Shown here one piece after another: positions 592-52,872 of a DNA stretch of 64,000 nt (positions are counted from its first letter, which is position 1; every line of letters begins with the position of its first letter). A program made the translations under genes and the position numbers. The stretch is from Candidatus Margulisiibacteriota bacterium (GTDB taxonomy: Bacteria > Margulisbacteria > Marinamargulisbacteria > JBFWNS01). The notes under the pieces were generated by a model that had not been told where the DNA came from, ran no database searches, and worked only from the letters and a program-made list of their open reading frames with translations. The stretch covers positions 18,331 through 82,330 of the forward strand of contig JBFWNS010000001.1 of assembly GCA_050250935.1 (NCBI GenBank), written 5' to 3'.

Positions 592-1388
592 GAGAGTGCA
601 TCCCGAAGCGACACAAAGAGGGGTTCCCAGGGACCTTCTTGCTTGGTGTCCGACACAATACCTGCTTTTCGATCCCGCCATGGGCCAGGAATCCAACTGG
701 GAATTTGCTTTAAAAAGGCAGCCCGTTCAGGATGGGGCATCATGGCCATGACGTTACCGGCACTGTTGCAGATTCCGGCCAAGCCTTCTTGGGCGCCATT
801 GGGGGTTTCTGGAAAATCGGCAGAAATTTGCCCAGAGGACGAACAATAAAATAAAGCGGTTAATCCTGGAAGGGCTTCGCGAACAGCATCTGAAATCACA
901 AACCGCCCTTCACCATGGTTCACGGGCACCGGGAACACCGTGTCGTCTTCCATATAGCGGGTAAACACACTGTTACGGCTATTTTGAGGCCGAACTTGGA
1001 CCCAATCGCAGACAAAGCCATGGGGTTGTCCGCTTTTTTGATTGTGGGTTAAGGCCATTTCGGTGTGATGAACCCCACCCAAATTGGGTACCAAGCCCGA
1101 TTCCGCTAAAATCTGACACCCATTACAAATGCCCAAAACCGGTTTTCCAGCCTCTGCAGCTTCTTGAATGGCTGTCAAAATGGGCAACTTGGCCGCAATG
1201 GCCCCAGACCGGACCCGATCCTGATAGGAAAACCCACCCGGTAAAATATAAGCCCCAAAAGACCGAACTTTGTCCAAGGGTTCATTCCACCGAACAATGG
1301 TAGAAGCCAGCCCATAAAACTCAGCAGCCTTTTGGGTTTCATATTCACAATTGCTGCCTGGAAACTGAATAATCGCCACCGTGTTCAT
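588..1388 (-). CDS. purQ: Phosphoribosylformylglycinamidine synthase glutaminase subunit
   Basis: FPGSNCE, LPGGFSYQD, LGICNGCQIL, HGEG and MMPHPER motifs. Confidence 0.95.
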   Translation of the reverse strand: MNTVAIIQFPGSNCEYETQKAAEFYGLASTIVRWNEPLDKVRSFGAYILPGGFSYQDRVRSGAIAAKLPILTAIQEAAEAGKPVLGICNGCQILAESGLVPNLGGVHHTEMALTHNQKSGQPHGFVCDWVQVRPQNSRNSVFTRYMEDDTVFPVPVNHGEGRFVISDAVREALPGLTALFYCSSSGQISADFPETPNGAQEGLAGICNSAGNVMAMMPHPERAAFLKQIPSWIPGPWRDRKAGIVSDTKQEGPWEPLFVSLRDALS

Positions 1389-9176: not shown

Positions 9177-9253
9177 GGGCCCATAGCTCAGTTGGTTAGA
9201 GCACTCGGCTCATAACCGATTGGTCCTAGGTTCAAGTCCTAGTGGGCCCACCA
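9177..9253 (+). tRNA. tRNA-Ile2(CAT, lysidine-type); prophage integration target
   Basis: GGGCCCATAGCTCAGTTGGTTAGAGCACTCGGCTCATAACCGA...TGGGCCCACCA; CAT anticodon, no fMet features, resembles ileX-type tRNAs. Confidence 0.88.
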
Positions 9254-10694
9254 CATCTTGATTTACGAACTCGAAGAGCATTTTCCCTAGCAAATTGAGC
9301 TCAAATTCCAGTTTTCCTTCGTTATGAACCAGGTTCGTAAAAATCAATCCGATCACCTTTTGAAAATCCCCTGCATCATCGATTAAAGGTAGGTATTTAC
9401 GCACGAAAACGAAGGTATTTACGAGGTCCATAAACGAGGTTCGAGTCCTAATGGGGTTTTGGGCCAATACCTCGTACTTTGCTTGCAGTTTAACAAGGGT
9501 TTGGTTGAGCTGATCTTTGCGATCAAGATACTCGTCTTTGGTGAGTAGCCCGTCTTCGTAATGGTCCAGCAATTTCATGATTTTGGTCTTGGTAAGCTTG
9601 ATATCTCGGTTAATGGTGTCGCTTTGTTTGTCGGTATCATCATCCATCTGTTGAAACACTGTGCGGGCGATATCCTTAATCATATCGAATTGGGTATCCG
9701 TGATACTCACCTTCGACAATATAGTGTCCAGTTGCTCCATAATGGCTCTCTCAGAGAAGTATCTTGTTTGAGCCGGGCAGGTCCGTCCTTTATGTTTCGC
9801 ACCACATCCGTAAGTGACGTACTTTTCTTTCTTCAGCTCACCATACATTGGTGACCCACAGGAGCACTTTAAAAGGCTGGAAAATCGGAACTCACGGACT
9901 TTTCCATCCTTGGAGCGATGTCTACCCTTTAAACCTTCTTGGACAGCGTAAAAAAGCTCTGGCTCAATGAACGTTTCATAATTCCCGCTAAATAGCCCGA
10001 GCTTGGAGTTTATCTCTCCAATGTAGAAGACATTTTTAAGATGGTAGCTTACTTTTGAGGGATAGTATTTTGTACCTAAGGTCTTGTTCAGGTAATCAGT
10101 AATAGTGTGAACGGAGTCGCCAGCTTTGGCCATTTCGAAGGCTGTCTTAATAACAGGTGCTGATTGTGGATCCGGTTCGATGGTGGCGCGTCCGTTGATA
10201 CGGACATTGCGGTATCCTGGCGGTGCGAGATGACACCAGCCTCCGGCCATGAGTTTTTGCGTCATCCCTTTTTTGACTTCTTCAGAAAGGTTATTGACAT
10301 AGTTTCGGGCTAATACGACTTGGATATCCAGCTGGAATTTGTCTTGGGATTTGGAATTCTTATTGAGGATTAATGAGTTCTTGATAAGGTGAACATCCAC
10401 ATCGTGTTCTTCAACCAGGTCATACACGGCAATAAGGTCGTGGAAGTTGCGGGTCATCCGATCCACTTTTTCAAACAAAATGGCTTTGACCTTGTGCTTC
10501 TTTACATACCGAATCATTTCGTCAAACATCTTCCGGCCCTGCCCCTTGGCCGAGTAGGATTCATCGTATTGTTTGACTACCTCAAAGCTTTTTTGGTCAG
10601 CGTAATCCTTAAAGAGGCTATTTTGAGCCGAGATCGAGTAGCCGGAGTCCCGCTGTTCAGTGGATGAAACACGGGCATAGGAGACGGCTTTCAT
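9210..10694 (-). CDS. Large serine recombinase (integrase)
   Basis: YARVSS catalytic motif, DRMTR, PPGY recombinase domain, CSCG...C zinc ribbon, coiled coil; last 44 nt overlap the tRNA antisense. Confidence 0.95.
   Translation of the reverse strand: MKAVSYARVSSTEQRDSGYSISAQNSLFKDYADQKSFEVVKQYDESYSAKGQGRKMFDEMIRYVKKHKVKAILFEKVDRMTRNFHDLIAVYDLVEEHDVDVHLIKNSLILNKNSKSQDKFQLDIQVVLARNYVNNLSEEVKKGMTQKLMAGGWCHLAPPGYRNVRINGRATIEPDPQSAPVIKTAFEMAKAGDSVHTITDYLNKTLGTKYYPSKVSYHLKNVFYIGEINSKLGLFSGNYETFIEPELFYAVQEGLKGRHRSKDGKVREFRFSSLLKCSCGSPMYGELKKEKYVTYGCGAKHKGRTCPAQTRYFSERAIMEQLDTILSKVSITDTQFDMIKDIARTVFQQMDDDTDKQSDTINRDIKLTKTKIMKLLDHYEDGLLTKDEYLDRKDQLNQTLVKLQAKYEVLAQNPIRTRTSFMDLVNTFVFVRKYLPLIDDAGDFQKVIGLIFTNLVHNEGKLEFELNLLGKMLFEFVNQDVVGPLGLEPRTNRL
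9238..9253 (+). repeat. attL core (tRNA 3' end)
   Basis: CCTAGTGGGCCCACCA, identical to 45591-45606. Confidence 0.92.
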
Positions 10695-11296
10695 CCTTCA
10701 TTTAAGCCTTCATCCGGGCGTTTAATAATAATGTGGGCACTTTGGAATTGATCAAAAAGTTCGGATATATGGCGGATATCGTTTCGGATATCTTGAACAT
10801 CCTTACTCAGTTGGGTAACTTTTCCCGAAATCAACATGTGATCAACTAAGTGATTAGCTTCAATAGTATCCATTCGAGATTCAATACGACCTACTGTCTC
10901 TTTCAACAAGGCATACTCGGGTTGAGCAGCAATGATCTGGCGAAGCTCAACAAAAGCTCGCATGATACGAATGTTGATTTCTACAGCAATATCGCTTCGG
11001 AGTATTCCGGATAACATTGCCACTCCCTGTTCAGTAAACGCATAAGGAAATGATCCTCCAAGGTGCTTTATCGAAGGTATCACATTTTGTGATACCATGT
11101 TTTCAGCCTCAGTTTCACTTAATTGAAACATAAAGTCAGTAGGAAACCTCTTGAGATTACGCTTCACTTGTTGTCTAAGAACGATAGGCTTTACCTGATA
11201 TAACTCGGCTAAGTCCCTGTCGAGCATAACCCGAACTCCACGAAGGGTATAAATCCGCGATTTTAAATCCTCAAAACTTGCCAATTCTTTACTCAT
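10691..11296 (-). CDS. ORF6N-domain DNA-binding protein
   Basis: VMLDRDLAELY, RFPTDFMFQL, PYAFTEQGVAMLS motifs; stop overlaps the recombinase start. Confidence 0.88.
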   Translation of the reverse strand: MSKELASFEDLKSRIYTLRGVRVMLDRDLAELYQVKPIVLRQQVKRNLKRFPTDFMFQLSETEAENMVSQNVIPSIKHLGGSFPYAFTEQGVAMLSGILRSDIAVEINIRIMRAFVELRQIIAAQPEYALLKETVGRIESRMDTIEANHLVDHMLISGKVTQLSKDVQDIRNDIRHISELFDQFQSAHIIIKRPDEGLNEG

Positions 11297-16351: not shown

Positions 16352-16636
16352 ATGGTCAAATCATCGATTACATTTAACACGGATCTATTGAGGACCCTGA
16401 TTGAAAAAAAGAACGGGTCAATTGTTGCGTTTGCCAAAGACCTTACCAGCTACGGCTATCCTGTTACAAGGCAGGCTGTTCAATTGTGGCTGATTGGGAG
16501 AAAGCCCTGCGTGGATGCTCTTCTTCATTTATCAGAATATTTTAACGAGCCTATAAAAAAATTTCTCATAATAAGTGATATGGCATCATATCATAAATTA
16601 TCAAAGGGTGAGTTTCCGGGGGATTCAAATGAGTAA
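16352..16636 (+). CDS. Cro-like HTH protein
   Basis: FAKDL...VTRQAVQLWLIGRKP HTH; first gene of the rightward operon. Confidence 0.7.
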   Translation: MVKSSITFNTDLLRTLIEKKNGSIVAFAKDLTSYGYPVTRQAVQLWLIGRKPCVDALLHLSEYFNEPIKKFLIISDMASYHKLSKGEFPGDSNE

Positions 16637-42164: not shown

Positions 42165-43222
42165 TCAATATCACCCCAACCATCCGGATTGAAGCCAACA
42201 ACAAAGACATCACCGACATAATCAAGGAGCGGTTTGTATCCCTAAAGATTACGGATGAATCCGAGTATCAGTCAGATATTGCCGAAATAACCCTGGCCGA
42301 CCACAAGCCGGATGCCAGAATCAAAATGCCGCCAACCGGTGCTGAACTTCGAATTTGGGTTGGCTATGACGAAAAAGCCACCGATATGGGGCTCTGGATT
42401 GTCGATGAAATCCGTCTTGCGGGTCCGCCGGATTCAATGACTCTGGTTGCCCGAGCAGCACCGTTTATGAAAAGCATGAAAGGCAGGCTTGCCTTAACCT
42501 CTCATCGAAACCGCACGTGGCCGGCAGGAACCACCATTGGCGGGATGGTCAAAAAGATGGCTGATAAAAGTAAGCTGGAAGCTAAAGTGTCATCGACAAT
42601 GGCGGGAATAGTGCTTCCACACATTGCTCAAATCAACCAGTCAGACCTAGACCTACTTACTAAACTCATACCCAAATATTTCGGGATTGCCACGGTTAAA
42701 AACGGTGCCATTGTTGTTACCAGTTTGGCCGAATCAAAAACAGGCTTAACCAACTCGGAAATCCCACCCATCACGTTGGTTCCTTCAGACGTCACTTCCT
42801 ATCAGACTTCCGTTAAAAGCCGTGGGCAGTATGGAAAGGTAATTGCGAAATACCGGGACTATAAAACATCGACTGACAAGCAGGTTGTCGTTGGGGATGA
42901 AGAACCAGTCTTGAGGCTACCATTTACCTTGCCAAATATGGACTCTGCCTATAATTCGGCCAAAGCCAAATATATGAATGGTAAGCGGGGTCTTCAGGAG
43001 GTTTCTTTAACCTTGCCAGGACGGACCGATATCTTTGCTGAAAGACGATTGGTTTTGACCGGATTCCGGGACGAATTAAGCGGTGAATGGAAAATAAAAC
43101 GGGTCGAACACCAGATCGATCAGGGTGGATATTCCTGCTCTGTAACCCTGGCCGTGAATATAACAAATGAGGACATACCGCCAGTATCCGAATCTGACGA
43201 AAGCGAAGACGATGAAGAGTAA
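42155..43222 (+). CDS. Baseplate hub / late control protein D
   Basis: GPPD, QINQSDLDLL, GEWKIKRVEH. Confidence 0.85.
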   Translation: MGLINITPTIRIEANNKDITDIIKERFVSLKITDESEYQSDIAEITLADHKPDARIKMPPTGAELRIWVGYDEKATDMGLWIVDEIRLAGPPDSMTLVARAAPFMKSMKGRLALTSHRNRTWPAGTTIGGMVKKMADKSKLEAKVSSTMAGIVLPHIAQINQSDLDLLTKLIPKYFGIATVKNGAIVVTSLAESKTGLTNSEIPPITLVPSDVTSYQTSVKSRGQYGKVIAKYRDYKTSTDKQVVVGDEEPVLRLPFTLPNMDSAYNSAKAKYMNGKRGLQEVSLTLPGRTDIFAERRLVLTGFRDELSGEWKIKRVEHQIDQGGYSCSVTLAVNITNEDIPPVSESDESEDDEE

Positions 43223-43497
43223 TGGAACTCATAACACTCTTAAAAGAAGTCCGAGACCCCGCAGTCTTTTTGTTCTGCGTCGCAATTGTTTTCTATCTCA
43301 ACCGTAACTATGTAAGCAAGGAAACCTACCGGGAAAACTTTGATTCTTTGAAAAAAGAGCTTGAAGCCATTCGTGATGACTATGTTTCCAAAGAAAAGTT
43401 GGCCGACGTGTTAAAGCCTGTTGAGGACCAGCTAAAAAGTATTGGCCGTGAGATTGGTGAAATAAAAAAGTTCATCGTCGATGTCATCAAAAAATAA
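43222..43497 (+). CDS. Single-TM coiled-coil protein in lysis cassette (holin candidate)
   Basis: One hydrophobic helix then coiled coil; precedes the endolysin. Confidence 0.5.
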   Translation: MELITLLKEVRDPAVFLFCVAIVFYLNRNYVSKETYRENFDSLKKELEAIRDDYVSKEKLADVLKPVEDQLKSIGREIGEIKKFIVDVIKK

Positions 43498-43509
43498 GGA
43501 GGCCGTATC

Positions 43510-43962
43510 TTGGATTTGAATCAAAAATTGAGTGAGCACTTCCAACTTTGGGAGTTTGTTACTTCTCAAGTTGCTCAGCGTAACGGCATCAACAACAACC
43601 CAACTCCCGAAGTTATCCAATGCCTAAAAAAGCTCTGTGAAACAGTTTTGGAACCTGCCAGGTTTGCCTTGGGGCCGTTGCGTATTTCATCCGGGTACAG
43701 ATGTCCGGCTTTGAACAAAGCTGTAGGAGGGGCGGCAACCAGTGCCCATCAATTTGGGTTTGCAGCGGATGTTTTGCCACTCAAAGTAAGCAAGCTGGAA
43801 TTTGCCAAGTGGATCGTTAAAAACGTGCCGTTTGACCAAATTATTTTGGAGTATGGAACAGAAGCCGATCCTGCTTGGATTCACGTTAGTGCGGATCCTC
43901 GTCATCGCAAAAAAGTGATGCGGATTTTAAACGGAACCGGTTATCAAAAAATCAACCTATAG
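43510..43962 (+). CDS. Endolysin, peptidase M15A family
   Basis: LSEHFQLWEF, ISSGYRCPALN, SAHQFGFAAD, WIHVS. Confidence 0.9.
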   Translation: MDLNQKLSEHFQLWEFVTSQVAQRNGINNNPTPEVIQCLKKLCETVLEPARFALGPLRISSGYRCPALNKAVGGAATSAHQFGFAADVLPLKVSKLEFAKWIVKNVPFDQIILEYGTEADPAWIHVSADPRHRKKVMRILNGTGYQKINL

Positions 43963-43971
43963 GAGGAAATA

Positions 43972-44349
43972 ATGGATATTTTAGGTGCAGTTGGAAATGT
44001 ATTCGGTGGTGTCGGTAAGCAAGTGGTTATTTGGACCATCGGTGGGGCCATTTCACTTTTTGTTGTCAATGAAATCCGCAAGTTTCTGAACGAAATCAAG
44101 GACCACATCATTCGTAAGGTAAAGGGGGAAGTGGCTAATATTGAAGACGAAAACCTTCGAGAAGCTGCACGGCATGTTGTACGGTATGTGGCCGGAAGGT
44201 TTCCGGATATTTCCGGAGACGCAAAGCTCCAAATGGCTATCAAGCAGCTTCAGGACATTACTCCAGACATCTTGGTTTCGGACGACAAATTAAAAGTACT
44301 CATCGAATCAGCTTACAGTGACTTCAAACAAGAGCTAAAAAGTGTTTAA
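43972..44349 (+). CDS. Putative holin (LL-H-like)
   Basis: N-terminal TM, GDAKL and LIESA motifs; follows the endolysin. Confidence 0.55.
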   Translation: MDILGAVGNVFGGVGKQVVIWTIGGAISLFVVNEIRKFLNEIKDHIIRKVKGEVANIEDENLREAARHVVRYVAGRFPDISGDAKLQMAIKQLQDITPDILVSDDKLKVLIESAYSDFKQELKSV

Positions 44350-44779
44350 ACGCTTTATCGTTTCACTGGCACTGATGGGGCTTTTTGCGGGATCCTTAAG
44401 TGCTGCCGAATTTCCCGAAACCTTTTTAGAAATAAGCCCGGAGCTATCATATGGCGTTCACGATAACGGCCCGGCCTGGATTGAACTGGTTCCACTAAGA
44501 GGCGGCTGGCAAGCCACAAAGCAAACTGCCGTAAAAGCGGGCTTCAGCTATGCCTACGAAATTGACCGTGATAAAAAGCCCTTTGGAACTCCCAATCATT
44601 ACGGTTGGAGAATTTCAGCACGATTGGAGCATGCCTTTGTTCCTAGTAGTGATATGAGGTTTTTTTATGAGGTGAACGTGGGCGAGAAAGTTGACGGCTC
44701 AAGGAATGAGATTAACTACCTTCAAACGATGAATTATCAGCGGTTTGGGCTTGTTTGGAGGCTTTGGAAGGTTATTTAG
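44342..44779 (+). CDS. Exported protein, possibly a small beta-barrel
   Basis: Signal peptide; alternating aromatic strands; ends FGLVWRLWKVI. Confidence 0.55.
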   Translation: MFKRFIVSLALMGLFAGSLSAAEFPETFLEISPELSYGVHDNGPAWIELVPLRGGWQATKQTAVKAGFSYAYEIDRDKKPFGTPNHYGWRISARLEHAFVPSSDMRFFYEVNVGEKVDGSRNEINYLQTMNYQRFGLVWRLWKVI

Positions 44780-44824
44780 CTGAGTGGTTTTACAGTACCA
44801 CTTTATTGCCACTATAATCTTTAA

Positions 44825-45505
44825 ATGACCTACAGTTTTTGGGGAAAGTTTTTTAGAAAAGATTTAAAGCTGAGTGATAGATGGTGGCACAGACTTTTAT
44901 CAGTTAGTTTCCTTATTTTTGTAGTATGGTTTTTCTTCTATTTAGCACCTCGTCCTGAAACAAGATGGATTCAGGCGGAAAAATTTTCCAACAGAATAAC
45001 ATCCGACATTAAGCCAATTGAATCATTATTAAAGCAGAATGAAAGACTTGGAGATAAAAACGAAGAGCTTTATGGAAATGACTCCTCCATGGATGCCTAT
45101 TCTAAAGATACTTATTATTCAAATAATCTTCAGGCCACTTACAAGCAAATTATGATTGAGCGAAACATCCACAATCTGTATATCTATGATCACAATAGTG
45201 CGCCGGACAGAATCGAAGTTACCTCTGAAAAATTTTTAGACTACATTCAAAAAAATAATATAAAAGGGTTAGCGATAGACAGCTTTAGCTTTGAAGATGG
45301 CCATAAACTGTATTTCTTACAGGTTCCAACTATGGAACCTTATCAAGATTACTTTGTTTATAAAAAATCTTTATTCAAGACGGCGGTAGGATATGGCGGA
45401 ATCTTATGTATGGTATCAGGCATTACCTTAATTTTTTCTGCTTTGATTCTTACTGCATATTATAAGGTTATTCTTTACATAATATTTGGATCTAGGAAAG
45501 AATAA
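44825..45505 (+). CDS. AT-rich two-TM membrane moron protein
   Basis: Own TATAAT (44813-44818); TM segments at both ends; last gene before attR. Confidence 0.65.
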   Translation: MTYSFWGKFFRKDLKLSDRWWHRLLSVSFLIFVVWFFFYLAPRPETRWIQAEKFSNRITSDIKPIESLLKQNERLGDKNEELYGNDSSMDAYSKDTYYSNNLQATYKQIMIERNIHNLYIYDHNSAPDRIEVTSEKFLDYIQKNNIKGLAIDSFSFEDGHKLYFLQVPTMEPYQDYFVYKKSLFKTAVGYGGILCMVSGITLIFSALILTAYYKVILYIIFGSRKE

Positions 45506-45573
45506 ATTTTGTGACAAACATCAAGCCACCTTCAAAGCCTCCGAATACAAATTAAAGTAAAATAGCAGCCGAT

Positions 45574-45606
45574 TAGGAGCGTAAACCTGACCTAGTGGGC
45601 CCACCA
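45574..45606 (+). repeat. attR (site 1)
   Basis: TAGGAGC-10 nt-CCTAGTGGGCCCACCA; core identical to the tRNA 3' end. Confidence 0.92.
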
Positions 45607-45667
45607 GCGCTTTTTTGATACTTTTGAGGCTAAATTTAGTTCAAGTCCTAATGGGTTGGTAGCTGAT

Positions 45668-46114
45668 TTATCTTCCCTGTGTCGAGATTCTTGTGACCAA
45701 TAGCAGTTCTTCCAGCATTGGATGAATTAAATGGGGAGCCGGCATATACGGATTAGTAAAAAACTTATACCTCAGAGCATGCGACGAATATTGTGAACTT
45801 AATCCCTTAACTATTGTTTGTGTTTCATCTGTAATCAGAATGTCTTTTTTTTGCAATTCGCCCAAGAGCGCTTTTAAGTTGTGGCGATAATCATATTTTT
45901 TAAGATTTCTTTCTTCCCATCCTCTTTTTAGGAGAGCCGCTTTTAAAAATAATTCTACCGCCTGTGATACTAAAAAATAGAAAGGAATAGCCGTTAATTT
46001 TGCTGGAGATCCATCTTCGCGTTTTTCCATAGTGTTTTCTAGTTTTTTAGCGCTTTCCCAGAAATTTACAGCAACTAATCTATAGGTGGATGCTAAGACA
46101 ATACTATCTTCCAC
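45668..46114 (-). CDS. HEPN-like protein
   Basis: FLVSQAVELFLKAAL, RHNLKAL, ALRY pattern typical of HEPN folds. Confidence 0.55.
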   Translation of the reverse strand: MEDSIVLASTYRLVAVNFWESAKKLENTMEKREDGSPAKLTAIPFYFLVSQAVELFLKAALLKRGWEERNLKKYDYRHNLKALLGELQKKDILITDETQTIVKGLSSQYSSHALRYKFFTNPYMPAPHLIHPMLEELLLVTRISTQGR

Positions 46115-46116
46115 TG

Positions 46117-46941
46117 CTAATCCAAAAATTTCTGACTACCCGAAGAAATTACACCCAGCCGCCTTAACTGATCCATAGCCAGTTGCCTTAATTTCTGAAA
46201 CCGCTCTTCCTTGCTTTTTCTTTCAACTATCAAAATCGAATTGTAGCTTTCCAAATTTGCCAAAATCACAAGCTGTGTCGCAGTAGCTTCATCCCTCATA
46301 TTTGCAACCCCATCTAAAATTGCTTTGGGATTTTCATCTCGCCACTGTTTAGCGGTTTTTCCAAAAAGTGCAACATTGATAATGTCGGCTTCCTCCGCAT
46401 AAATAAGCCATTCCTGATTTTTAGGAATGTTGGGCAACAGATGCTCTTTGACCGCATCCGTATGTAGTTTGTAATTCACTTTGCTTAAAAAGCGTTTAAC
46501 ATCCCATCCTTCTTGAAGCCGTTGTTGCTCTTGTTCTTTGAGTCGTTGAAACTCTTTGATAATAAGGAGCTTAAATTCTGGACTTAACCAAGCACCAAAC
46601 TCAAAAGCGATATCCTTGTGTGCAAAAGTGCCACCATATCGACCGGCCTTAGCTTGCAGGCCAACGGCATTAGTTTTATCAATCCATTTTTTAACTGAAA
46701 TTGTGAATCGATTTGTACCCGCTTCATTTCTAATTCCCCCGAATTCGGGGGAATTAAAATCAGGGTTGTTCAGTTCTTCCCAAACGCCTAAAAACTCAAT
46801 GGTATTTTTGTTAATCAGCCACTTTTCGATGAGCCTGCTGCCATCCTCGTAGGAAGACGTCATATCTGTTAAAGAGACAAAATCCATGCCGTTTTGTGTT
46901 AAAACTGATATTTTTGACCCTTTAACTTCAATTTTGGGCAT
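46117..46941 (-). CDS. KilA-N domain protein
   Basis: VSLTDM, TIEFLGVWE, GRYGGTFAHKDIAFEF, LSKVNYKLHTDA. Confidence 0.9.
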   Translation of the reverse strand: MPKIEVKGSKISVLTQNGMDFVSLTDMTSSYEDGSRLIEKWLINKNTIEFLGVWEELNNPDFNSPEFGGIRNEAGTNRFTISVKKWIDKTNAVGLQAKAGRYGGTFAHKDIAFEFGAWLSPEFKLLIIKEFQRLKEQEQQRLQEGWDVKRFLSKVNYKLHTDAVKEHLLPNIPKNQEWLIYAEEADIINVALFGKTAKQWRDENPKAILDGVANMRDEATATQLVILANLESYNSILIVERKSKEERFQKLRQLAMDQLRRLGVISSGSQKFLD

Positions 46942-47080
46942 AAATCCATATCTCCTTTAAAAAGTTTCCCTATTTTAACCTACACCCACTTTGCATCCAA
47001 TACGAAAAGGTTCGATAAATACCCCTTAAGCAGCCTTTAAAGCCACCCATTCCAAGAAGAAGTCCATCATTTCGATGAAA

Positions 47081-47123
47081 TTTTCGTGCGTAGGAGCGTC
47101 CTGGTGCCCAATTGGGCCCACCA
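47081..47123 (+). repeat. att-like site 2
   Basis: TTTTCGTGCGTAGGAGC-10 nt-CCAATTGGGCCCACCA (core 14/16 to the tRNA end). Confidence 0.85.
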
Positions 47124-47300
47124 GCCTTCGCAATAAAATGGCGATCTGCACGATTTTCGCTGCGGTCACATATTTGCAATATGTTCCCTCTGCGAGAAAT
47201 CGCACATCTCATCCATTTTATTTGCGAATGCCTCTGCTTCGGATTTATTTGCAAAAATTGCGCCGATTGTTGCCTTCGAAGCAACTCCCTACGCGAGTTT

Positions 47301-47843
47301 TTACGAATCTGACGCACTCTCGAAGCTCGATTCCTCAAGGCCTTTAATCACAAGGAAATCTTTCCATGCATCTATGCATTTGTTGCACAAATCAAATATG
47401 TCAAATTTTACAATTTCCTTTGTGTCAGGGTTTTCAAATGCCGCTCTATATTTGATTGGACTTCCTTTTGTCTCGAAATAATCATATTCACGATACCAAT
47501 TAAAGTCTGAATCTAATGGCCTTCGATCTATTTTTTTGTGTTTATATCCATTTGCAATATCTCGACAAAATCGAAGCTCAATATTCTGAGAAAATAGATT
47601 GTCTATATCAATTTTGAAATCTGGATAGGAATTTAAAAGATAATCTTTAACATGGAAGCAATTCTGAAAAAATGCAATAAGTTCGTCGTCGTCGAAATTA
47701 GACAATTCCGAATTCTTTGACTTATTGGCTAAAATTTGAACTCGACTATACCACCTTAATACTCGATTCCATTGAATGCGCCATTGATCTTTCTCTTCAA
47801 TTGTAACGGGACTTAATGCACTCCCACCGAACCATTGCGGCAT
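47301..47843 (-). CDS. Hypothetical protein, possibly HEPN-like
   Basis: FFQNCFHVKDY and CRDIANGYKH; coupled to the antitoxin gene. Confidence 0.55.
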   Translation of the reverse strand: MPQWFGGSALSPVTIEEKDQWRIQWNRVLRWYSRVQILANKSKNSELSNFDDDELIAFFQNCFHVKDYLLNSYPDFKIDIDNLFSQNIELRFCRDIANGYKHKKIDRRPLDSDFNWYREYDYFETKGSPIKYRAAFENPDTKEIVKFDIFDLCNKCIDAWKDFLVIKGLEESSFESASDS

Positions 47844-48124
47844 TACCCAATTCTCACAAGCTCAGTTCCCAAGGCTTTTGACACCTTAAAGATTGTCGAT
47901 AGTTTTACATCTTGTGGATGCCTCTCCAACCGAGAAATTGCTTGTTTTTTAGTATGAATTAACTCTGCTAACTGTGATTGAGTAAGACCTTTTTCTTTCC
48001 GGGTCTTTCGAATCAATTCACCCAAGACTTCAAGCTTAAAGTCTTCATATTCATCGTCAAATTTTTCAAATGTTTTGGGGTGTTTCTTTTTTTGTTCTTC
48101 AAGGTAATTACGAAATGTGGCCAT
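47843..48124 (-). CDS. XRE-family HTH antitoxin (HigA-like)
   Basis: RKEKGLTQSQLAE...ISRLE HTH, downstream of a RelE-like gene. Confidence 0.85.
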   Translation of the reverse strand: MATFRNYLEEQKKKHPKTFEKFDDEYEDFKLEVLGELIRKTRKEKGLTQSQLAELIHTKKQAISRLERHPQDVKLSTIFKVSKALGTELVRIG

Positions 48125-48129
48125 GGTTG

Positions 48130-48489
48130 TTACCTCCTACTTAGATAATCGTTTTTGTAATTTTCCGCAATTTCAATCTCATTTTGCGGTGTTTTTTGCG
48201 ATTTCTTTTGAAATCCGTTTGTCAAAATAACCAACTTCCCTTTGTGCATAAATCCCAAAAACCGATAAATGTTGGACTCGTATTCAATCCGCGCTTCCCA
48301 AAGTCCATTTGAACCTGTCATTTTTTGCCAATATTTCGAAGGAACAATCTGGAGCTCTTCAATTAGACTGAATACAAATAATATCTTTTTACGAACCTTT
48401 AGTGGTAATTCATCTAGATAATCTTTAACAGGAACTTTTCCCGAAGATTTTTTGTAAAATTCGATGATTCGATGCCGGTTCTCTGTCAT
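48130..48489 (-). CDS. RelE/HigB-like (Gp49-type) toxin
   Basis: GKVPVKDYL, GLWEAR, LTNGFQKKSQKTP...EIEIA. Confidence 0.88.
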   Translation of the reverse strand: MTENRHRIIEFYKKSSGKVPVKDYLDELPLKVRKKILFVFSLIEELQIVPSKYWQKMTGSNGLWEARIEYESNIYRFLGFMHKGKLVILTNGFQKKSQKTPQNEIEIAENYKNDYLSRR

Positions 48490-48668
48490 TTGTATTTCCC
48501 AGTTACGATCAATTGTAAACATGAGAGTTGACTTTTTTCAAGTGTCGCTTGTGATGCCAAATTGGCAATATGTACCATCCAAAATAGGTTCGAGAAACGC
48601 CCCTAAGCTGCCTTCAAACCCGACCATTCCCAGAAAAATCCCAGAAAAATCCCAGCAAAATCCCAATG

Positions 48669-48711
48669 TTTTCGTGCGTAGGAGCAGAACAGTAACCAAT
48701 TGGCCCCACCA
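48669..48711 (+). repeat. att-like site 3
   Basis: TTTTCGTGCGTAGGAGC-10 nt-CCAATTGGCCCCACCA (core 13/16). Confidence 0.83.
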
Positions 48712-48790
48712 TCTTGAATATGTCCAAAAAATTAATAATTATGGACACGTTTTATTGACATGTCCATGCCATACACATATTCTATTGGAT

Positions 48791-49870
48791 ATGCACATTA
48801 ATTCAGAAACACCCTATAATGAGCTTCCGCTACTTCCACTTCAGCAGTCTTTTGAGACAATACCAGTGATGCAAGCGGCTATTCGAGCGAATAGGGCGTT
48901 AGCTGAGCTCAAAGGAATTGCTCAAACGATTCCAAACCAAAGTATCTTTATCAATACAATCAGCCTTAAAGAAGCACAATATAGCTCTGAAATCGAAAAT
49001 ATTATTACAACAACAGATGAGCTGTATCAGGCGTTTTCTGTTTCAGACGGGAAGATGACACAATCGGCAAAAGAAGTTTTGCAATATCGCAATGCGTTAT
49101 GGCAAGGATTTTCTCAGCTCAAAAAACGTGGAATCTTAACCACATCTGTAATGAATGAAATTCAGGCAACACTTTTAGATAATAACGCAGGAATTCGGTC
49201 TTTACCTGGAACAGCACTAAAAAATGCTATTACAGGTAAAATTATATATACACCTCCGGTAGGCAAAGATGTCATCTTGGATAAGTTGAAAAACTTGGAA
49301 ACTTACATCCATTCTGAAACAGTTGATCCGTTGATTAAAATGGCCATTATGCACTATCAATTTGAGTCTATTCACCCATATTATGATGGCAATGGTCGTA
49401 CGGGACGGATTTTAAATGTTCTCTACCTTATTTATGAAGGCTTGTTAGATCAGCCTATTCTTTATCTCAGCCATTACATTATTCAACACAAAGAAGAGTA
49501 CTACCGCTTATTGCAAAATTGTACTTTTAAGGAAGATTATGAGCCTTGGATTTTGTATATGCTCAGAGGTGTTGAAGAGTCAGCAAAGGAATCGATTTCG
49601 AAAATAAAATCGATCCAGCTTCTTATGCAGGAGACAATGGCAATTATCAAAGAAAAACTGCCTAAAATTTATTCAAAAGAACTTGTGGAGGTTCTTTTTC
49701 AGCAACCATACTGCAAAATCAAATTCCTTGAAGATTATGGCTTAGCAAAAAGAAAAACAGCTTCTGAATATCTTTATCAGCTTGAGGCTATTGGTGTTTT
49801 AGAATCCAAAAAAATTGGACGGGAAACGTTGTTTTTGAATGTGCGGTTGTTTGAGTTGTTTAGAGGATAG
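48791..49870 (+). CDS. Fic family protein adenylyltransferase
   Basis: HPYYDGNGRTGR Fic motif, SSEIEN inhibitory motif; TTGACA-17-TATTCT promoter just upstream. Confidence 0.92.
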   Translation: MHINSETPYNELPLLPLQQSFETIPVMQAAIRANRALAELKGIAQTIPNQSIFINTISLKEAQYSSEIENIITTTDELYQAFSVSDGKMTQSAKEVLQYRNALWQGFSQLKKRGILTTSVMNEIQATLLDNNAGIRSLPGTALKNAITGKIIYTPPVGKDVILDKLKNLETYIHSETVDPLIKMAIMHYQFESIHPYYDGNGRTGRILNVLYLIYEGLLDQPILYLSHYIIQHKEEYYRLLQNCTFKEDYEPWILYMLRGVEESAKESISKIKSIQLLMQETMAIIKEKLPKIYSKELVEVLFQQPYCKIKFLEDYGLAKRKTASEYLYQLEAIGVLESKKIGRETLFLNVRLFELFRG

Positions 49871-49893
49871 GCTATGTGTGTAGCCCTAGGATT

Positions 49894-49936
49894 TTTTCGT
49901 ACGTAAGAGCAGAACCGTAACCTATTAGCCCCACCA
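49894..49936 (+). repeat. att-like site 4 (outermost)
   Basis: TTTTCGTACGTAAGAGC-10 nt-CCTATTAGCCCCACCA (core 13/16); core-genome genes resume beyond it. Confidence 0.78.
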
Positions 49937-50038
49937 CGATAAATATGTCGAAAAACCACAAAAAGATCGACACATTTTATCAATATTTCGATGGGATCGA
50001 CATCTCTGCCCAAGCTAGCGGGCTAATCCTTTGCATCT

Positions 50039-50073
50039 TAATGGCGTAATCATCAGCTGGTATTACGCCATTA
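50039..50073. terminator. Hairpin between the island and rpoD 3' end
   Basis: TAATGGCGTAAT / ATTACGCCATTA 12-bp inverted repeat; no clear U-tract. Confidence 0.4.
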
Positions 50074-50180
50074 CTGCAACATTCCTCCAATAATCCCCCT
50101 TATCGAATCGGCGTTATCCCCGATTTTTCCAAACCAAGGCCATCAATGGGGTGACGAGGGTGAAGAGGGTTTTTGAACAC

Positions 50181-51152
50181 TTAATCTTGCGTATACGCCT
50201 TTAAATCGGACCTGCCGGACTTGTCTTTGAGGCGTTGGAGGGCTCGGCTTTCGATTTGGCGGATGCGTTCTCGGGTGAGGTTGAATTGTTTGCTGATTTG
50301 ATCGAGGGTTTGAGGGGGGTGATTGTCGAAGCCGAAGCGCCGTTTGAGCACCTCTTGTTCGCGGTCGGGCAACTCGGTTAGAACTTGTCGCAAGGTCTCT
50401 TTCATGAGGGTTTGCATGGCCGCTTCTTCGGGTTGTGGATGCTGGTCGTCTTCCACCACATCGCCCAACACATAGCCGTCTTCCGAGCCGATGGGTAAAT
50501 CGATGGACAAGGGCAGTTCTGCAACCTTTAAAATTTCGTGAACCCGCTTGAGTTCCATGCCCGATTTGGCCGCAATTTCTTCTTCGGTTGGGGTTCGGCT
50601 GAGCTCTTGCACCAGCTGGCGAGAGATCATGCGCAGGCGGTTGATGGCCTCGACCATGTGCACCGAAACGCGGATGGTTCGCCCTTGATCGGCCAGCGCT
50701 CTGGACATGGCTTGGCGAATCCACCACATGGCATAGGTGCTGAACTTAAACCCTTTTTTATAATCAAATTTTTCGACGGCCCGAATCAGGCCAATGTTGC
50801 CTTCTTGAATCAGATCCAAAAAGGGCAAACCCCGACCCACAAACCGCTTGGCCACACTGACCACCAAGCGCAGATTCGCCAAAATCAGTTGATGCTTGGC
50901 CTCCAGATCGCCGGCTTCGATTTGCTTGGCCAGGACAATTTCTTGGTCGCGGTCCAACAGGGGAATCCGACCAATTTCGCGTAAATACACTTTAACCGAA
51001 TCTTCAGTGACAATCGAAGTTGGAACTTCGAGGGCATTTTCGGCTTCCGCATCGGCGGCTGCATCGTCTAGGGTATCGGGTTCCTCCTCAAAAAAAGCGT
51101 CTTCAATCGAATGTTCGATGCGCGGATCAAGCGGTTTATTGGGCTCCACCAT
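50181..51152 (-). CDS. rpoD: Primary sigma-70 factor (short form)
   Basis: [54 protein letters not shown]; downstream of dnaG. Confidence 0.88.
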
Positions 51153-52872
51153 GACTCTCCTTCCTCAATAAGGACTGCAATTCGGTCAAAAGCGCATTGA
51201 TTTCGGGTTCTTGTCCGGGGAGCTTCTCGAGCTCCGCCACGCGGGATTTTAGGGTTTCAATACGACGTTGGGCTCGGGTTTCTTCAAACAACTTCAGACA
51301 GGCTTCGATCTGAAAACCGTCATGAGCGGCCATCATCACCCGTCCCATTTTCTGTTTTAACTGCGGATCGGTCAATGATCCCAAAAACGCCTGATCGACC
51401 AAATCGGACTTGGCCAACTGCTCGGCCAGCTCGCGGTGATCGGGAACAGTAAACGCTTCGCTGCGCCACTGGGTAAAAAAGTGGGTTCTTAAATTCAGAT
51501 CGCCCACCAAGCCCGCCAACACGGTTTCTTCGGCTTTGTCGAATTTGTTTTTTTGGGGTTGAACACGGTTTGGCGTTGGGGCACCGGAAACCGGGGTTGT
51601 CATGCGCAAGCGATCCAAAATCCATTCCGGCTCGACATTAAGGGTTTTGGCCATGTGGCGAATGTAGTATTTTTGGACCACATCGTCGGTTTCGGCCTTT
51701 AACAATGGGGCCATGAGCCGCAAAATATCGGCGGCATATTCGATGCGTTTGCCCGGGTATTTTTGCAGCAACCGCTCGAACATGACCTCGATGATGGATT
51801 TCGGAGATTCGACCAAGGCCCGGTAGGCGGCTTCGCCTTGTTCGGTGAGCACATCGGCAGGGTCTTTTTCGGGCAAAGCCAACACGAACACTTTAAGCTC
51901 TTGTTGGCGCAACACCTCGAAACTGCGCTCGACAGCCCGTTGCCCAGCCTCATCGCTATCGAAACCCAACACCACGGTTTGGGTGAAGCGTTTGAGGCGA
52001 ATGGCGTGTTCGTTCGTCAAGGCTGTGCCCAGGGTGGCAACGGTGTTTTTGAATCCAAATTGGTGAGAGACCATCACGTCCATATAGCCTTCGACGACGA
52101 TGGCCTTGTCTTGGGCTTTGATGGCTTGTTTGGCCAAATCAAGACCGTACAACACGCGGCGTTTGTTAAACAGCAGGGTCTCTTCGGAATTGATGTATTT
52201 TGCCGCCGATTCTGAAGGCTGAACCAACCGCCCCCCAAACCCCACCAACCGACTGCGCTCGTCGTGGACGGGGAACATCAGGCGTCCCCGAAACCGGCAA
52301 ACCCAATCGCCCCGCTCGGTTTTGAAAAACAACCCCGACTTGGCCAAGAGTTCTTGGGCATAGCCTTTTCCCAGCAAGATCTGATTTAAATCGAGGTTCG
52401 GCGGGCAATAGCCGATGTGAAATTCGGCCAAAGACAGCTCCGTTAGACCCCTTTTTTTGGCATAGTCTTCGGCCAAAGAGCCCGGAAAATGCTGCTTAAA
52501 CCATTCCCGACACACCACCAAAAGGTCTTGAATGGCCCCGCGGTCTTTGTCATCTTGGGATTCGAAGGTTGTTTTTTCGTCTTCTTCGATGGGAATGCCA
52601 GCCTTGGTGGCAATTTGGCGAATGGCATCGGTAAAGGACAGGTTTTCGATTTTCATGATGAAGGTGATGTGGTCCCCAGACTCTTGGCACCCAAAACAAT
52701 GAAACAGCTTTTTTTCGGCACTAACAGTAAACGATGGGCTGCGCTCGGAATGAAACGGACAAAGCCCCAAATGGTTACGCCCCCGCTTGCGCAGCGAGAC
52801 ATAATCGCCAATAATTTGGACAATGTCTGGGATGTTTCGAACTTGTTCTACGGTTGTTTTTGAAAGTGCCAT
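51136..52872 (-). CDS. dnaG: DNA primase
   Basis: CPFHSE zinc finger, FGGR, KYINS, VEGYMDV, FDSDEAG Toprim motifs. Confidence 0.97.

Follow-up and report, generated by a model that had tools for sequence, protein, structure and literature searches.

Integrase-less units stacked behind a serine-integrase prophage at a tRNA gene of a Margulisiibacteriota bacterium

Genomic islands that stack at tRNA genes are well known, but how tiny packets of defense or toxin genes without an integrase arrive at such places and spread is less clear. Here we examine a stretch of 64,000 nucleotides from the genome of Candidatus Margulisiibacteriota bacterium (assembly GCA_050250935.1, contig JBFWNS010000001.1, positions 18,331 to 82,330; hereafter the window), in which a prophage with a large serine recombinase (LSR), called E0, sits at the 3' end of a tRNA(CAU) gene and is followed by three small integrase-less units—E1, E2, and E3—and a gene-less stub, E4. 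The locus probably forms the outer portion of an island that grew by tandem accretion at tRNA(CAU), made of units that resemble cis-mobilizable elements (CIMEs) and built by serial insertion of LSR elements. On our best reading, its closest kin are the ssrA islands of Dehalococcoides and the staphylococcal cassette chromosome (SCC), and it is not integron-like.

Described islands and the locus compared

How does the locus relate to systems already described? In Dehalococcoides, tandem islands at ssrA are separated by direct repeats of ~20 bp, each with a conserved 15-bp motif just upstream; a CcrB-like LSR is encoded on the reverse strand next to attL, and 15 islands without an integration module have been proposed to be mobilizable in cis (McMurdie et al. 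2011, PMC3146451). As far as that account goes, the window is alike in its LSR beside attL, the 3' end of a stable RNA as target, the tandem units, the motif beside the repeats, and the presence of units without an integrase. The target, however, is the tmRNA gene in Dehalococcoides and tRNA(CAU) in the window, and the integrase is carried there by an island with a six-gene integration module and here by a complete tailed phage. Unlike the islands described there, the integrase-less units of the window span just 1.2–1.6 kb and carry toxin or defense cargo. The upstream motif is accounted for in the window as coding sequence of the integrase's tail.

SCC and pseudo-SCC cassettes stack at the 3' end of one conserved gene, are bounded by short direct repeats, and in some cases lack a recombinase. 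SCC and the window share LSRs, stacked cassettes, short direct repeats, and some units without a recombinase; the SCC target, however, is rlmH rather than a tRNA, and the window has a single integrase gene and far smaller units. The staphylococcal serine recombinases are CcrA and CcrB (PMC3146451). The E0 integrase is not a Ccr, scoring far below the NCBIfam cut-offs for CcrB (75.6 bits against 900), CcrA (71.5 against 700), and CcrC (37.2 against 900).

CIMEs and tandem accretion of the ICESt1 type were reportedly described by Pavlovic et al. 2004. CIMEs are said to be att-flanked units that lack recombination and transfer genes, share one site with an integrase-bearing element in a tandem array, and presumably move in cis. 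The window shows the structural side of this: direct repeats of the target flank the units, the units have no recombinase or transfer functions, and an integrase-bearing element with related att sites stands in tandem with them. CIMEs and ICESt1 reportedly involve a tyrosine recombinase and conjugative elements, whereas the window has the serine integrase of a phage.

Two further systems resemble parts of the arrangement. The tycheposons of Prochlorococcus insert serially at tRNA genes with partial tRNA copies between them, newcomers pushing older elements into the island; degenerate remnants are present, a minority carry an LSR, 910 of the 937 use tyrosine recombinases, and replication modules are carried (10.1101/2020.12.28.424599). 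Their arrays and the window have in common successive insertions at one tRNA and the displacement of older elements; the passages of that paper on remnants, however, do not describe recurrent integrase-less mini-units with conserved ends such as those of the window. In mycobacteriophages with integration-dependent immunity, attP lies in the repressor gene, and the viral form of the protein is tagged at its C terminus for degradation, as is the integrase (PMC3694055). The window resembles that account in having attP inside a coding sequence and C termini that differ between the viral and the prophage protein. In those phages, however, the gene that contains attP is that of the repressor, and integration relies on a tyrosine recombinase, whereas here attP lies in the serine integrase gene, with the ending ..LKAA as a putative degron. 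Mx8, with intP and intX, and SSV1 are further cases of a C terminus that changes with integration. The window is set apart from these known cases by its tRNA target, its complete-phage carrier, its tiny defense and toxin units, and an integrase open reading frame (ORF) that crosses attP. None of the publication titles examined concerned a serine integrase whose gene runs across attP at a tRNA, although titles alone are not proof that no such case is in print.

Junctions and the integrase coding tail

What are the sites that bound the units? The target, the prophage, and the four junctions are listed below by position in the window; handles beginning with G, L, and P denote genomes, loci, and integrase relatives.

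9177–9253, plus strand: tRNA(CAU), the integration target (ARAGORN: anticodon CAT, labelled tRNA-Met)
9254–45590: prophage E0, 36.3 kb, myovirus-like, apparently complete (16/16 cores at both bounds; PHROGs)
9210–10694, minus strand: LSR of E0, 494 aa (Pfam Resolvase, Recombinase, and Zn_ribbon_recom)
45521–45606, minus strand: junction 1, attR of E0, tail LVGPLGQVYAPNRLLFYFNLYSEALKVA then stop; motif and core at 45574–45606 (tblastn, frame reading)
47026–47123, minus strand: junction 2, intact tail ORF LVGPIGHQDAPTHENFIEMMDFFLEWVALKAA then stop; motif and core at 47091–47123 (motif search, frame reading)
48590–48711, minus strand: junction 3, frameshifted tail, the other frame ending ..GLKAA then stop; motif and core at 48679–48711 (frame reading)
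49871–49936, minus strand: junction 4, truncated tail VVGLIGYGSALTYEKILGLHT then stop; motif and core at 49904–49936 (motif search, frame reading)

The 16-nt core is the 3' end of tRNA(CAU) (9238–9253), and further copies lie on the plus strand at 45591 (16/16), 47108 (14/16), 48696 (13/16), and 49921 (13/16). Five core matches in the window are on the plus strand and one, overlapping and palindromic, is on the minus strand; these six compare with 0.37 expected from shuffles, and none of 100 shuffles reached six. The composite motif, TARGAGC-N10-core, matches at exactly the four junctions of the window (0.00 expected) and nowhere else in the 1.95-Mb genome. TTTTCGTRCG stands immediately 5' of TARGAGC at sites 2–4, and the distances from core to core are 1517, 1588, and 1225 bp. 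A first-pass annotation, made from the letters of the window, had reported the four sites, the match counts of 16, 14, 13, and 13 to the tRNA end, the shared upstream motif, and the three unit lengths; our motif and core searches and the spacing of the cores returned every one of them.

Why are the motif and its spacing conserved? The motif is integrase coding sequence; this, and the presence at the junctions of the left end of the next unit, are two points absent from that annotation. By its domains, the E0 integrase is an LSR (PF00239, 1.8e-24; PF07508, 3.5e-10; PF13408, 1.1e-7), a class of enzymes of some 450–550 aa in which recombinase and zinc-ribbon domains follow an N-terminal resolvase domain. 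Its ORF continues through the 16-bp core and on into the tRNA gene in antisense, ending ..VNQDVVGPLGLEPRTNRL, so that the final 14 codons and the stop (9210–9212) are encoded by the tRNA antisense. With gene and attachment site overlapping in this way, the sequence to the left of every core encodes, in antisense, the C-terminal tail of an integrase (..VGP(L/I)G-xxx-AP.., ending LKAA or LKVA). The tails at junctions 1–4 are homologous to those of free-form relatives of the integrase. Two of these, P0003 and P0004 (66 and 65% identical to the E0 integrase), end ..LVGQIGQDYAPKVIRHYFKLYVEELKAA and ..LVGPIGQDLAPGIISHYYNIYCEQLNAA; residues 482–509 of P0003 match the window at 45607–45524 with 57% identity (tblastn, E 3.6e-5), and the P0004 tail matches the same positions with 50% identity (E 8.4e-5). 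The last residues of the free forms are ..YVEELKAA in P0003, ..CEQLNAA in P0004, and ..QRLKKAA in P0006. A closer relative, P0002 (84% identical), ends ..GLEPRTCRL, in the manner of the integrated form. The attP of E0, reconstructed from both ends of the prophage, is an imperfect palindrome, CGTAAA-N9-GTGGGCCCAC-N10-TTTACG.

Read in this frame, TARGAGC encodes Ala-Pro in antisense (Ala-Leu at site 4), with one additional base, and TTTTCGTRCG likewise encodes Thr-His/Tyr-Glu-Asn/Lys; together they are the antisense of ..G-xxx-A-P-(T/N)-(H/Y/R)-E-(N/K)... The 10-nt spacer consists of one base of a Gly codon and three codons. The shared motif and its fixed spacing thus follow from integrase-tail coding, and the spacing is exact because an insertion or deletion would break the reading frame. 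The differences among the cores are coding variants of ..VGP(L/I)G.. (Leu/Ile and one synonymous Gly change) rather than random decay, except at site 4, where Pro has changed to Leu. Decay rises outward: the cores match at 16, 14, 13, and 13 of 16 positions, and the tails are intact, intact, frameshifted, and truncated. At junction 4, the stop codon of the tail abuts that of the Fic gene of E3. Across the genomes compared, 7 of 12 junctions outside tRNA genes stay open in the integrase frame for 28–32 codons and end ..KAA, ..EAA, ..KVA, or ..AVA; another remains open through 32 codons with NTV as its ending, and in the last four the frame is shifted or the tail shortened.

Each core is followed on its right by the left end of the next unit. 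The internal junctions are hybrid sites, in which the tail of the inner element is followed by the core and then by the left end of the outer element, an order that insertion of each newcomer beside the tRNA would produce. The earlier proposal that repeated insertion at one tRNA carried older material outward agrees with this; the junctions are related to those of the serine-recombinase prophage. E0, with PHROGs matches to large terminase, portal, major head, tail sheath, tape measure, and tail fiber proteins, is the newest insertion of the array.

Is the arrangement peculiar to E0? At distant loci of the integrase family, the ORF ended inside an opposite-strand tRNA in all six cases checked (Tyr, Ser, Asn, Gln, Gln, and Val). 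The genome of the window has a second LSR (539 aa, 27% identical to the E0 integrase; G000:C2:259545-261500, locus L043), whose stop codon (C2:259913-259915) lies inside the 3' end of the tmRNA gene, the same gene-crosses-site arrangement as in E0. These serine integrases appear to make up a clade that targets the 3' ends of tRNA or tmRNA genes and has attP within the integrase gene. No repeat of the tmRNA end with up to three mismatches occurs in the 70 kb downstream of the second locus, and searches for tRNA-end repeats beside distant family members in G055, G056, and G057 saw no arrays: G055 has one extra core 30 kb away, G056 has none on the same contig, and G057 has only three-mismatch matches at control level. 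IMG/VR viral contigs gave no match to the E0 integrase, to the integrase alignment, or to the junction pattern; the Fic alignment found one gene, 49% identical, in a terminal position on a viral contig of 31 kb that has neither a tRNA nor a junction. A 17-mer, TTTTCGTRCGTARGAGC, occurred at 73 loci of metagenome contigs, and in none of the 73 was a core-like sequence next to it (at best 6 mismatches in 16); we set these aside as chance matches.

The genome has three CAU tRNAs. The first base of the target tRNA is paired, and one of the other two looks initiator-like from the start of its sequence; the target, called tRNA-Ile2 in the first-pass annotation, could therefore be tRNA-Ile2 or elongator tRNA-Met. 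Just right of core 1 (~30–45 nt away, at 45637–45662) lies a fragment resembling the T arm and the acceptor 3' strand of tRNA(CAU), preceded by ..TTTTGAGGCTAAA... The same arrangement is seen past the last junction of G027 (L138 11441–11478, 87% identity over 38 nt). The fragment corresponds to tRNA sequence left of the 16-bp core, and a serine-integrase core alone does not explain it. We also considered the 11 codons right of core 1 as a 3' stub of an integrase gene, and rejected them: the match is weak (E 1.2), and they contain the T-arm-like fragment shared with G027. At a different tRNA, tRNA-Leu(TAA) of G044:C149 (L142 1300–1580), the gene adjoins a 280-bp stretch with two repeats of ~50 bp, similar to window positions 47153–47218; a tail-core remnant, TAGGAGC-N10-CCTATTACACCCACCA, follows with no gene between, and the stretch looks like an "empty" remnant.

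Units, cargo, and distribution in the class

What do the units carry? We profiled their six ORFs with Pfam and used PADLOC and NCBIfam for the cargo. The units, their genes, and the neighboring features are as follows.

45607–47107: unit E1, left-end stub with the T-arm-like fragment, HEPN, and KilA-N (Pfam)
45668–46114, minus strand: HEPN protein of E1 (Pfam)
46117–46941, minus strand: KilA-N protein of E1 (Pfam; PADLOC defense candidate PDC-S22, 4e-120)
47124–48695: unit E2, three ORFs (Pfam)
47301–47843, minus strand: 180-aa protein of E2, no Pfam family
47843–48124, minus strand: HTH_3 antitoxin-like protein of E2 (PF01381, 4.7e-13; NCBIfam antitoxin-type HTH matches below cut-off)
48130–48522, minus strand: Gp49/HigB-like toxin of E2 (PF05973, 2.9e-21)
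48712–49870, plus strand: unit E3, left end and SoFic-type Fic gene (Pfam, PADLOC, homologous units elsewhere)
48791–49870, plus strand: Fic_N, Fic, and SoFic-like_C protein of E3 (all three Pfam domains above cut-off)
49937–50012: E4 stub, 75 bp, gene-less, homologous to the E3 left end (alignment, frame reading)
10691–11296, minus strand: ORF6N-domain protein of E0 (Pfam ORF6N, 6.4e-31; PADLOC PDC-S05)
50181–51152, minus strand: rpoD, where host DNA resumes (Pfam sigma-70 regions, G+C step)

The cargo agrees with what the first-pass annotation had read from the translations—HEPN with KilA-N, an unassigned protein with a toxin/HTH pair, and a Fic protein—and Pfam found no recombinase among the six ORFs. 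The toxin and HTH genes of E2 lie on the same strand, 5 nt apart, with the toxin gene upstream, as in a putative HigBA-type pair. The Fic protein of E3 matches the PADLOC SoFic profile over positions 11–358 of 361 (2e-118) and scores 467 bits with NCBIfam SoFic, against an equivalog cut-off of 550. Published work describes SoFic as an abortive-infection protein that is toxic and AMPylates (PMC12249575). The genes of E1 and E2 are on the minus strand and that of E3 is on the plus strand. The G+C content is 0.35–0.40 over 45–50 kb, where the units lie, and 0.52 from 50 kb onward, in the rpoD-dnaG DNA.

The left end of E3 (48712–48790) holds three copies of TGTCCA/TGGACA in alternating orientation, overlapping a promoter-like TTGACA-17-TATTCT site. 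In the E4 stub, each copy reads TGTCGA/TCGACA instead, an in-step change that looks like an operator whose binding protein would have switched specificity; the winged-helix C-terminal domain of SoFic is one candidate for such a protein. The comparison of left-end repeats also covered L138 14603–14678 and L140 13684–13758. Gene-less stubs like E4 follow the last junction in G045 and G019, and a homologue of the E1 stub follows junction 2 of G027.

How widespread are such arrays? Our comparison genomes include no close relative; the nearest come from other families of this class, and identity between the RpoD proteins does not exceed 57%. The array DNA was searched against 54 other genomes of the class and 91 genomes outside it. 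The composite motif is found in 7 of 146 genomes of the phylum, the window's own included, and all seven are in one class. In G027 (two junctions) and in G014, G011, and G045 (one each), it lies 1.7–3.2 kb downstream of the same tRNA(CAU), which is 92–100% identical across genomes. Unit content differs among genomes and includes GIY-YIG with HAD, SoFic, a second Fic type, HNH, and ORF6N; comparing the interval behind this tRNA, as had been proposed earlier, thus revealed variable number, order, and content of units.

The SoFic unit recurs most clearly. Of the 54 other genomes of the class, 8 carry the E3 region over almost its entire length (five at 79–85% nucleotide identity and three at 66–70%), with a single partial match among the 91 genomes outside the class. 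At the protein level, SoFic shares 85, 89, and 91% identity with the copies of G027, G011, and G045, and RpoD is 49–52% identical in these genomes. For the Fic gene, the proportion of synonymous differences (pS) is 0.54–0.70 and the nonsynonymous distance (dN) is 0.05–0.08; for rpoD, pS is 0.81–0.83 and saturated. Within family f17 alone, nucleotide identity to the window's unit spans 69–84%. Because the unit is far less diverged than RpoD, we read it as having spread horizontally, though not recently, between families of the class. A core followed within 0–6 nt by an E3-type left end, and then by Fic, stands directly against the functional tRNA in three genomes (G011, G019, and G041) and against a junction in two others (G027 and that of the window). 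The SoFic unit, of 1.2–3 kb, is a discrete integrase-less module, and E3, at least, is more than a chance remnant: in other families the module recurs at this tRNA with its left boundary unchanged. One to three extra ORFs stand between Fic and the right junction in G011, G027, and G045, and these are absent in the window. A distant SoFic homologue (~66–67% nucleotide identity) lies just downstream of the tmRNA gene in G054:C1 (L148 2612–3556 and 3835–4214), tmRNA being another classic integration target.

For E1 and E2, only single genes recur. The KilA-N gene is found in G043 at 81% nucleotide identity, next to an ORF6N gene like that of E0, and the HTH gene is found in G027 at 83%, beside a degenerate tail-core remnant near tRNA-Ala. 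A HEPN match to a 143-aa ORF of G043 was discarded (E 0.64; that ORF is a GNAT). Each of these two units may be either a hitchhiking module or a deletion remnant.

Several further features lie in or beside the island. The ORF6N gene of E0, whose stop overlaps the integrase start by 4 nt, could encode a regulator or directionality factor. Its homologues (42–60% aa identity) adjoin integrase-less stubs past the last junction in G045 (L141 10134–10718) and G019 (L144 5362–5546), and another lies beside the KilA-N gene of G043 (L149 1642–2268); these genes seem to be part of the left-end module of such elements. For the last gene of E0 before its tail (44825–45505, 226 aa), searches of Pfam, PHROGs, PADLOC, and NCBIfam gave no match, and its G+C content of 0.35 is that of the integrase-less units, against 0.40–0.51 in the phage body; it may be E0's own cargo gene, at a position equivalent to that of the unit genes. 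A G+C-rich element, GCCTTCGCCAAGGCTACGGCTGGC.., lies directly after tRNA(CAU) in G027, after the terminal junction in G014, and after a tRNA-Ala in G027 (L138 ~16357–16390, minus strand; L139 8140–8175; L150 ~630–663, minus strand), and in both G027 and G045 it or a related stretch precedes a GIY-YIG gene. The element could represent the ancestral flank on the right of the target, or else an independent small element that is mobile or structured. Near rpoD, at ~50040–50075, there is an inverted repeat that looks hairpin-like by eye. In G027 (L138), G014 (L139), G045 (L141), G019 (L144), and G041 (L147), rpoD is on the same strand as tRNA(CAU) and directly upstream of it, and in G011 a glutamine-synthetase-like gene sits between the two. 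In the window, tRNA(CAU) and rpoD are convergent with the entire island between them, which suggests that the segment of tRNA plus island was inverted in this lineage.

Origin of the array

How might such an array arise? In the circular element, the integrase ORF would run through the 16-bp core into ~28–32 more codons, ending ..LKAA or ..LKVA. On integration, those codons would stay behind at the far end, in attR, and the integrase would end instead in codons of the tRNA antisense. Each newcomer would insert beside the tRNA and displace earlier elements outward; E1, E2, E3, and the E4 stub would then be older, integrase-less units behind the newest element, E0. If the integrases recognize mainly the tRNA half and the core of their target, a tRNA with a resident element would still be a target, and stacking would follow. 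Integrase-less units may travel in cis, when an integrase-bearing neighbor excises via a more distal junction, and be left at a tRNA when that neighbor later excises alone, which would amount to accretion and mobilization of the CIME type. In the composite circle, the tail of the unit would be translated as the C terminus of the integrase, which could account for the tails staying open. Many copies of the units are now eroding in place. The Ala-Ala ending may, as a guess by analogy with integration-dependent immunity, be a proteolysis signal; it resembles the end of the genome's own tmRNA tag, ..SAQAA.

Several observations weigh against serial insertion and movement in cis. Canonical LSRs, whose attP and attB are short and have a central crossover dinucleotide, recombine attP with attB only and do not act on attL-like targets unless a directionality factor is present, and insertion beside a resident element requires that a site made of the tRNA half, the core, and a foreign right half be accepted. 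The 10 nt between TARGAGC and the core of E0's own site (GTAAACCTGA) differ from those of sites 2–4, so the E0 integrase may not act on these. No homologue of the E0 integrase (E ≤ 1e-20) was found in G011, G014, G019, G045, G012, G041, or G042, whose completeness is 64–97%, and G027 has only an LSR that is 26% identical and lies at a tRNA-Glu locus. The SoFic left junction is eroded or absent in some genomes (G012 has a core without its last part, and G045 and G042 have no left core), and no right junction was found in G012 or G042. The search of the 54 other class genomes recovered no whole copy of E1 or E2. With a synonymous distance (dS) of about 1–2 for Fic, the transfers are old rather than recent, and the open tails could simply be due to recent descent from integrase-bearing elements. 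Contigs from three sequencing runs of one study, in which the organism is present, are identical to the window and contain no deletion, circle, or alternative joint across 45–50 kb, though at their low depth they are blind to rare forms. One contig of run X1, which may be the source, covers 43000–52000 without differences, and a piece from run X2 is identical across junction 3. Skips at 44.1–44.5 kb and 50.7–50.9 kb had sides of 21–32 nt and fell in the prophage and in conserved rpoD, and they were taken for other organisms.

Could E1–E3 instead be inert scars, the leftovers of random deletion in three full prophages, never mobile as small units and fixed in the chromosome, with the motif persisting merely as recent integrase coding sequence? 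We consider this unlikely, although it is the most probable of the rivals. The frameshift in tail 3 and the truncation of tail 4 speak for it, as do the lack in the window's SoFic unit of the downstream ORFs seen in G011, G027, and G045, the junction erosion in G012, G045, and G042, the missing whole copies of E1 and E2, the failure to find a cognate integrase in most unit-bearing genomes, and the ORF6N gene, like that beside the E0 integrase, which adjoins the KilA-N homologue of G043. It would need, however, three or four independent deletions, each starting ~35–180 bp from a core and sparing whole ORFs. Nor does it fit the SoFic left boundary, which falls at the same place, 0–6 nt from the core, in the window and in four other genomes (G011, G019, G041, and G027) although the neighbors differ; the much lower divergence of this unit than of RpoD, with identities that do not follow taxonomy; or the 7 of 12 tails that are still open with a common C-terminal ending. 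The first-pass annotation had offered "eroded right ends" of earlier elements as one of two readings. This reading is also partly right, in view of the damaged tails 3 and 4, the fuller SoFic units elsewhere, and the eroded junctions. The SoFic unit is a discrete module and appears to have moved between families.

The annotation's other reading was an integron-like platform, in which a recombinase at a fixed site collects promoterless cassettes with their own sites behind a common promoter. The small and similar unit sizes, the one to three intact toxin- or defense-type genes in each unit, and the variation of number and order between genomes would suit it, yet we hold it to be the least probable explanation of all. 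A tyrosine recombinase (PF00589), and with it any IntI-type enzyme, is absent from the window, the nearest match on the contig lying ~39 kb past the window's end; the sole recombinase is the LSR of a complete phage that is itself one of the insertions. The boundaries are direct repeats of the tRNA 3' end with integrase-tail sequence, and neither attI nor attC-like palindromes were seen by eye (no attC model was run). The genes lie on both strands, where integron cassettes have a single orientation and are mostly promoterless, and E3 has a promoter-like site within it. Only a little less improbable is movement of the units by homing endonucleases or by homologous recombination between conserved flanks, with the att-like junctions as bystanders. 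Units of G027 and G045 do contain GIY-YIG and HNH genes, a G+C-rich element is conserved behind several tRNAs or junctions, and the near-identical tRNA and the conserved tails provide homology for recombination after uptake. E1–E3 of the window, however, have no endonuclease gene, and unit boundaries coincide with cores rather than with endonuclease genes.

Serial insertion with CIME-type accretion stays our preferred explanation. A bolder form of it, which we put forward as speculative and rather doubtful, is that tRNA-targeting serine-integrase phages shuttle detachable defense mini-cassettes, with the integration state switching the C terminus, and so the stability, of the integrase. Excision via a distal junction would pick up the SoFic unit, the unit of PDC-S22 and HEPN, or the HigBA unit, and the tail of that unit would become the integrase C terminus. 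In a new host, the phage would leave alone and deposit the unit at the tRNA. Integration would swap an Ala-Ala-ended, possibly protease-targeted tail for one encoded by the tRNA.

What would this mean for these elements and their hosts? Each insertion by an integrase whose gene crosses attP leaves a recognizable coding tail as a footprint, which provides a search handle for junctions in other genomes and led here to six more. In a poorly sampled and uncultured class, a SoFic module of 1.2–3 kb appears to have moved between families. If it is true that any right flank is accepted, these would be unusual serine integrases and relevant to genome-engineering tools; if the swap of tails controls integrase stability, integration-dependent regulation would extend to the serine integrase itself. 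The shuttling of mini-cassettes and the C-terminal switch, if true, would together parallel cassette exchange, with a serine recombinase as the enzyme and a sensor built in.

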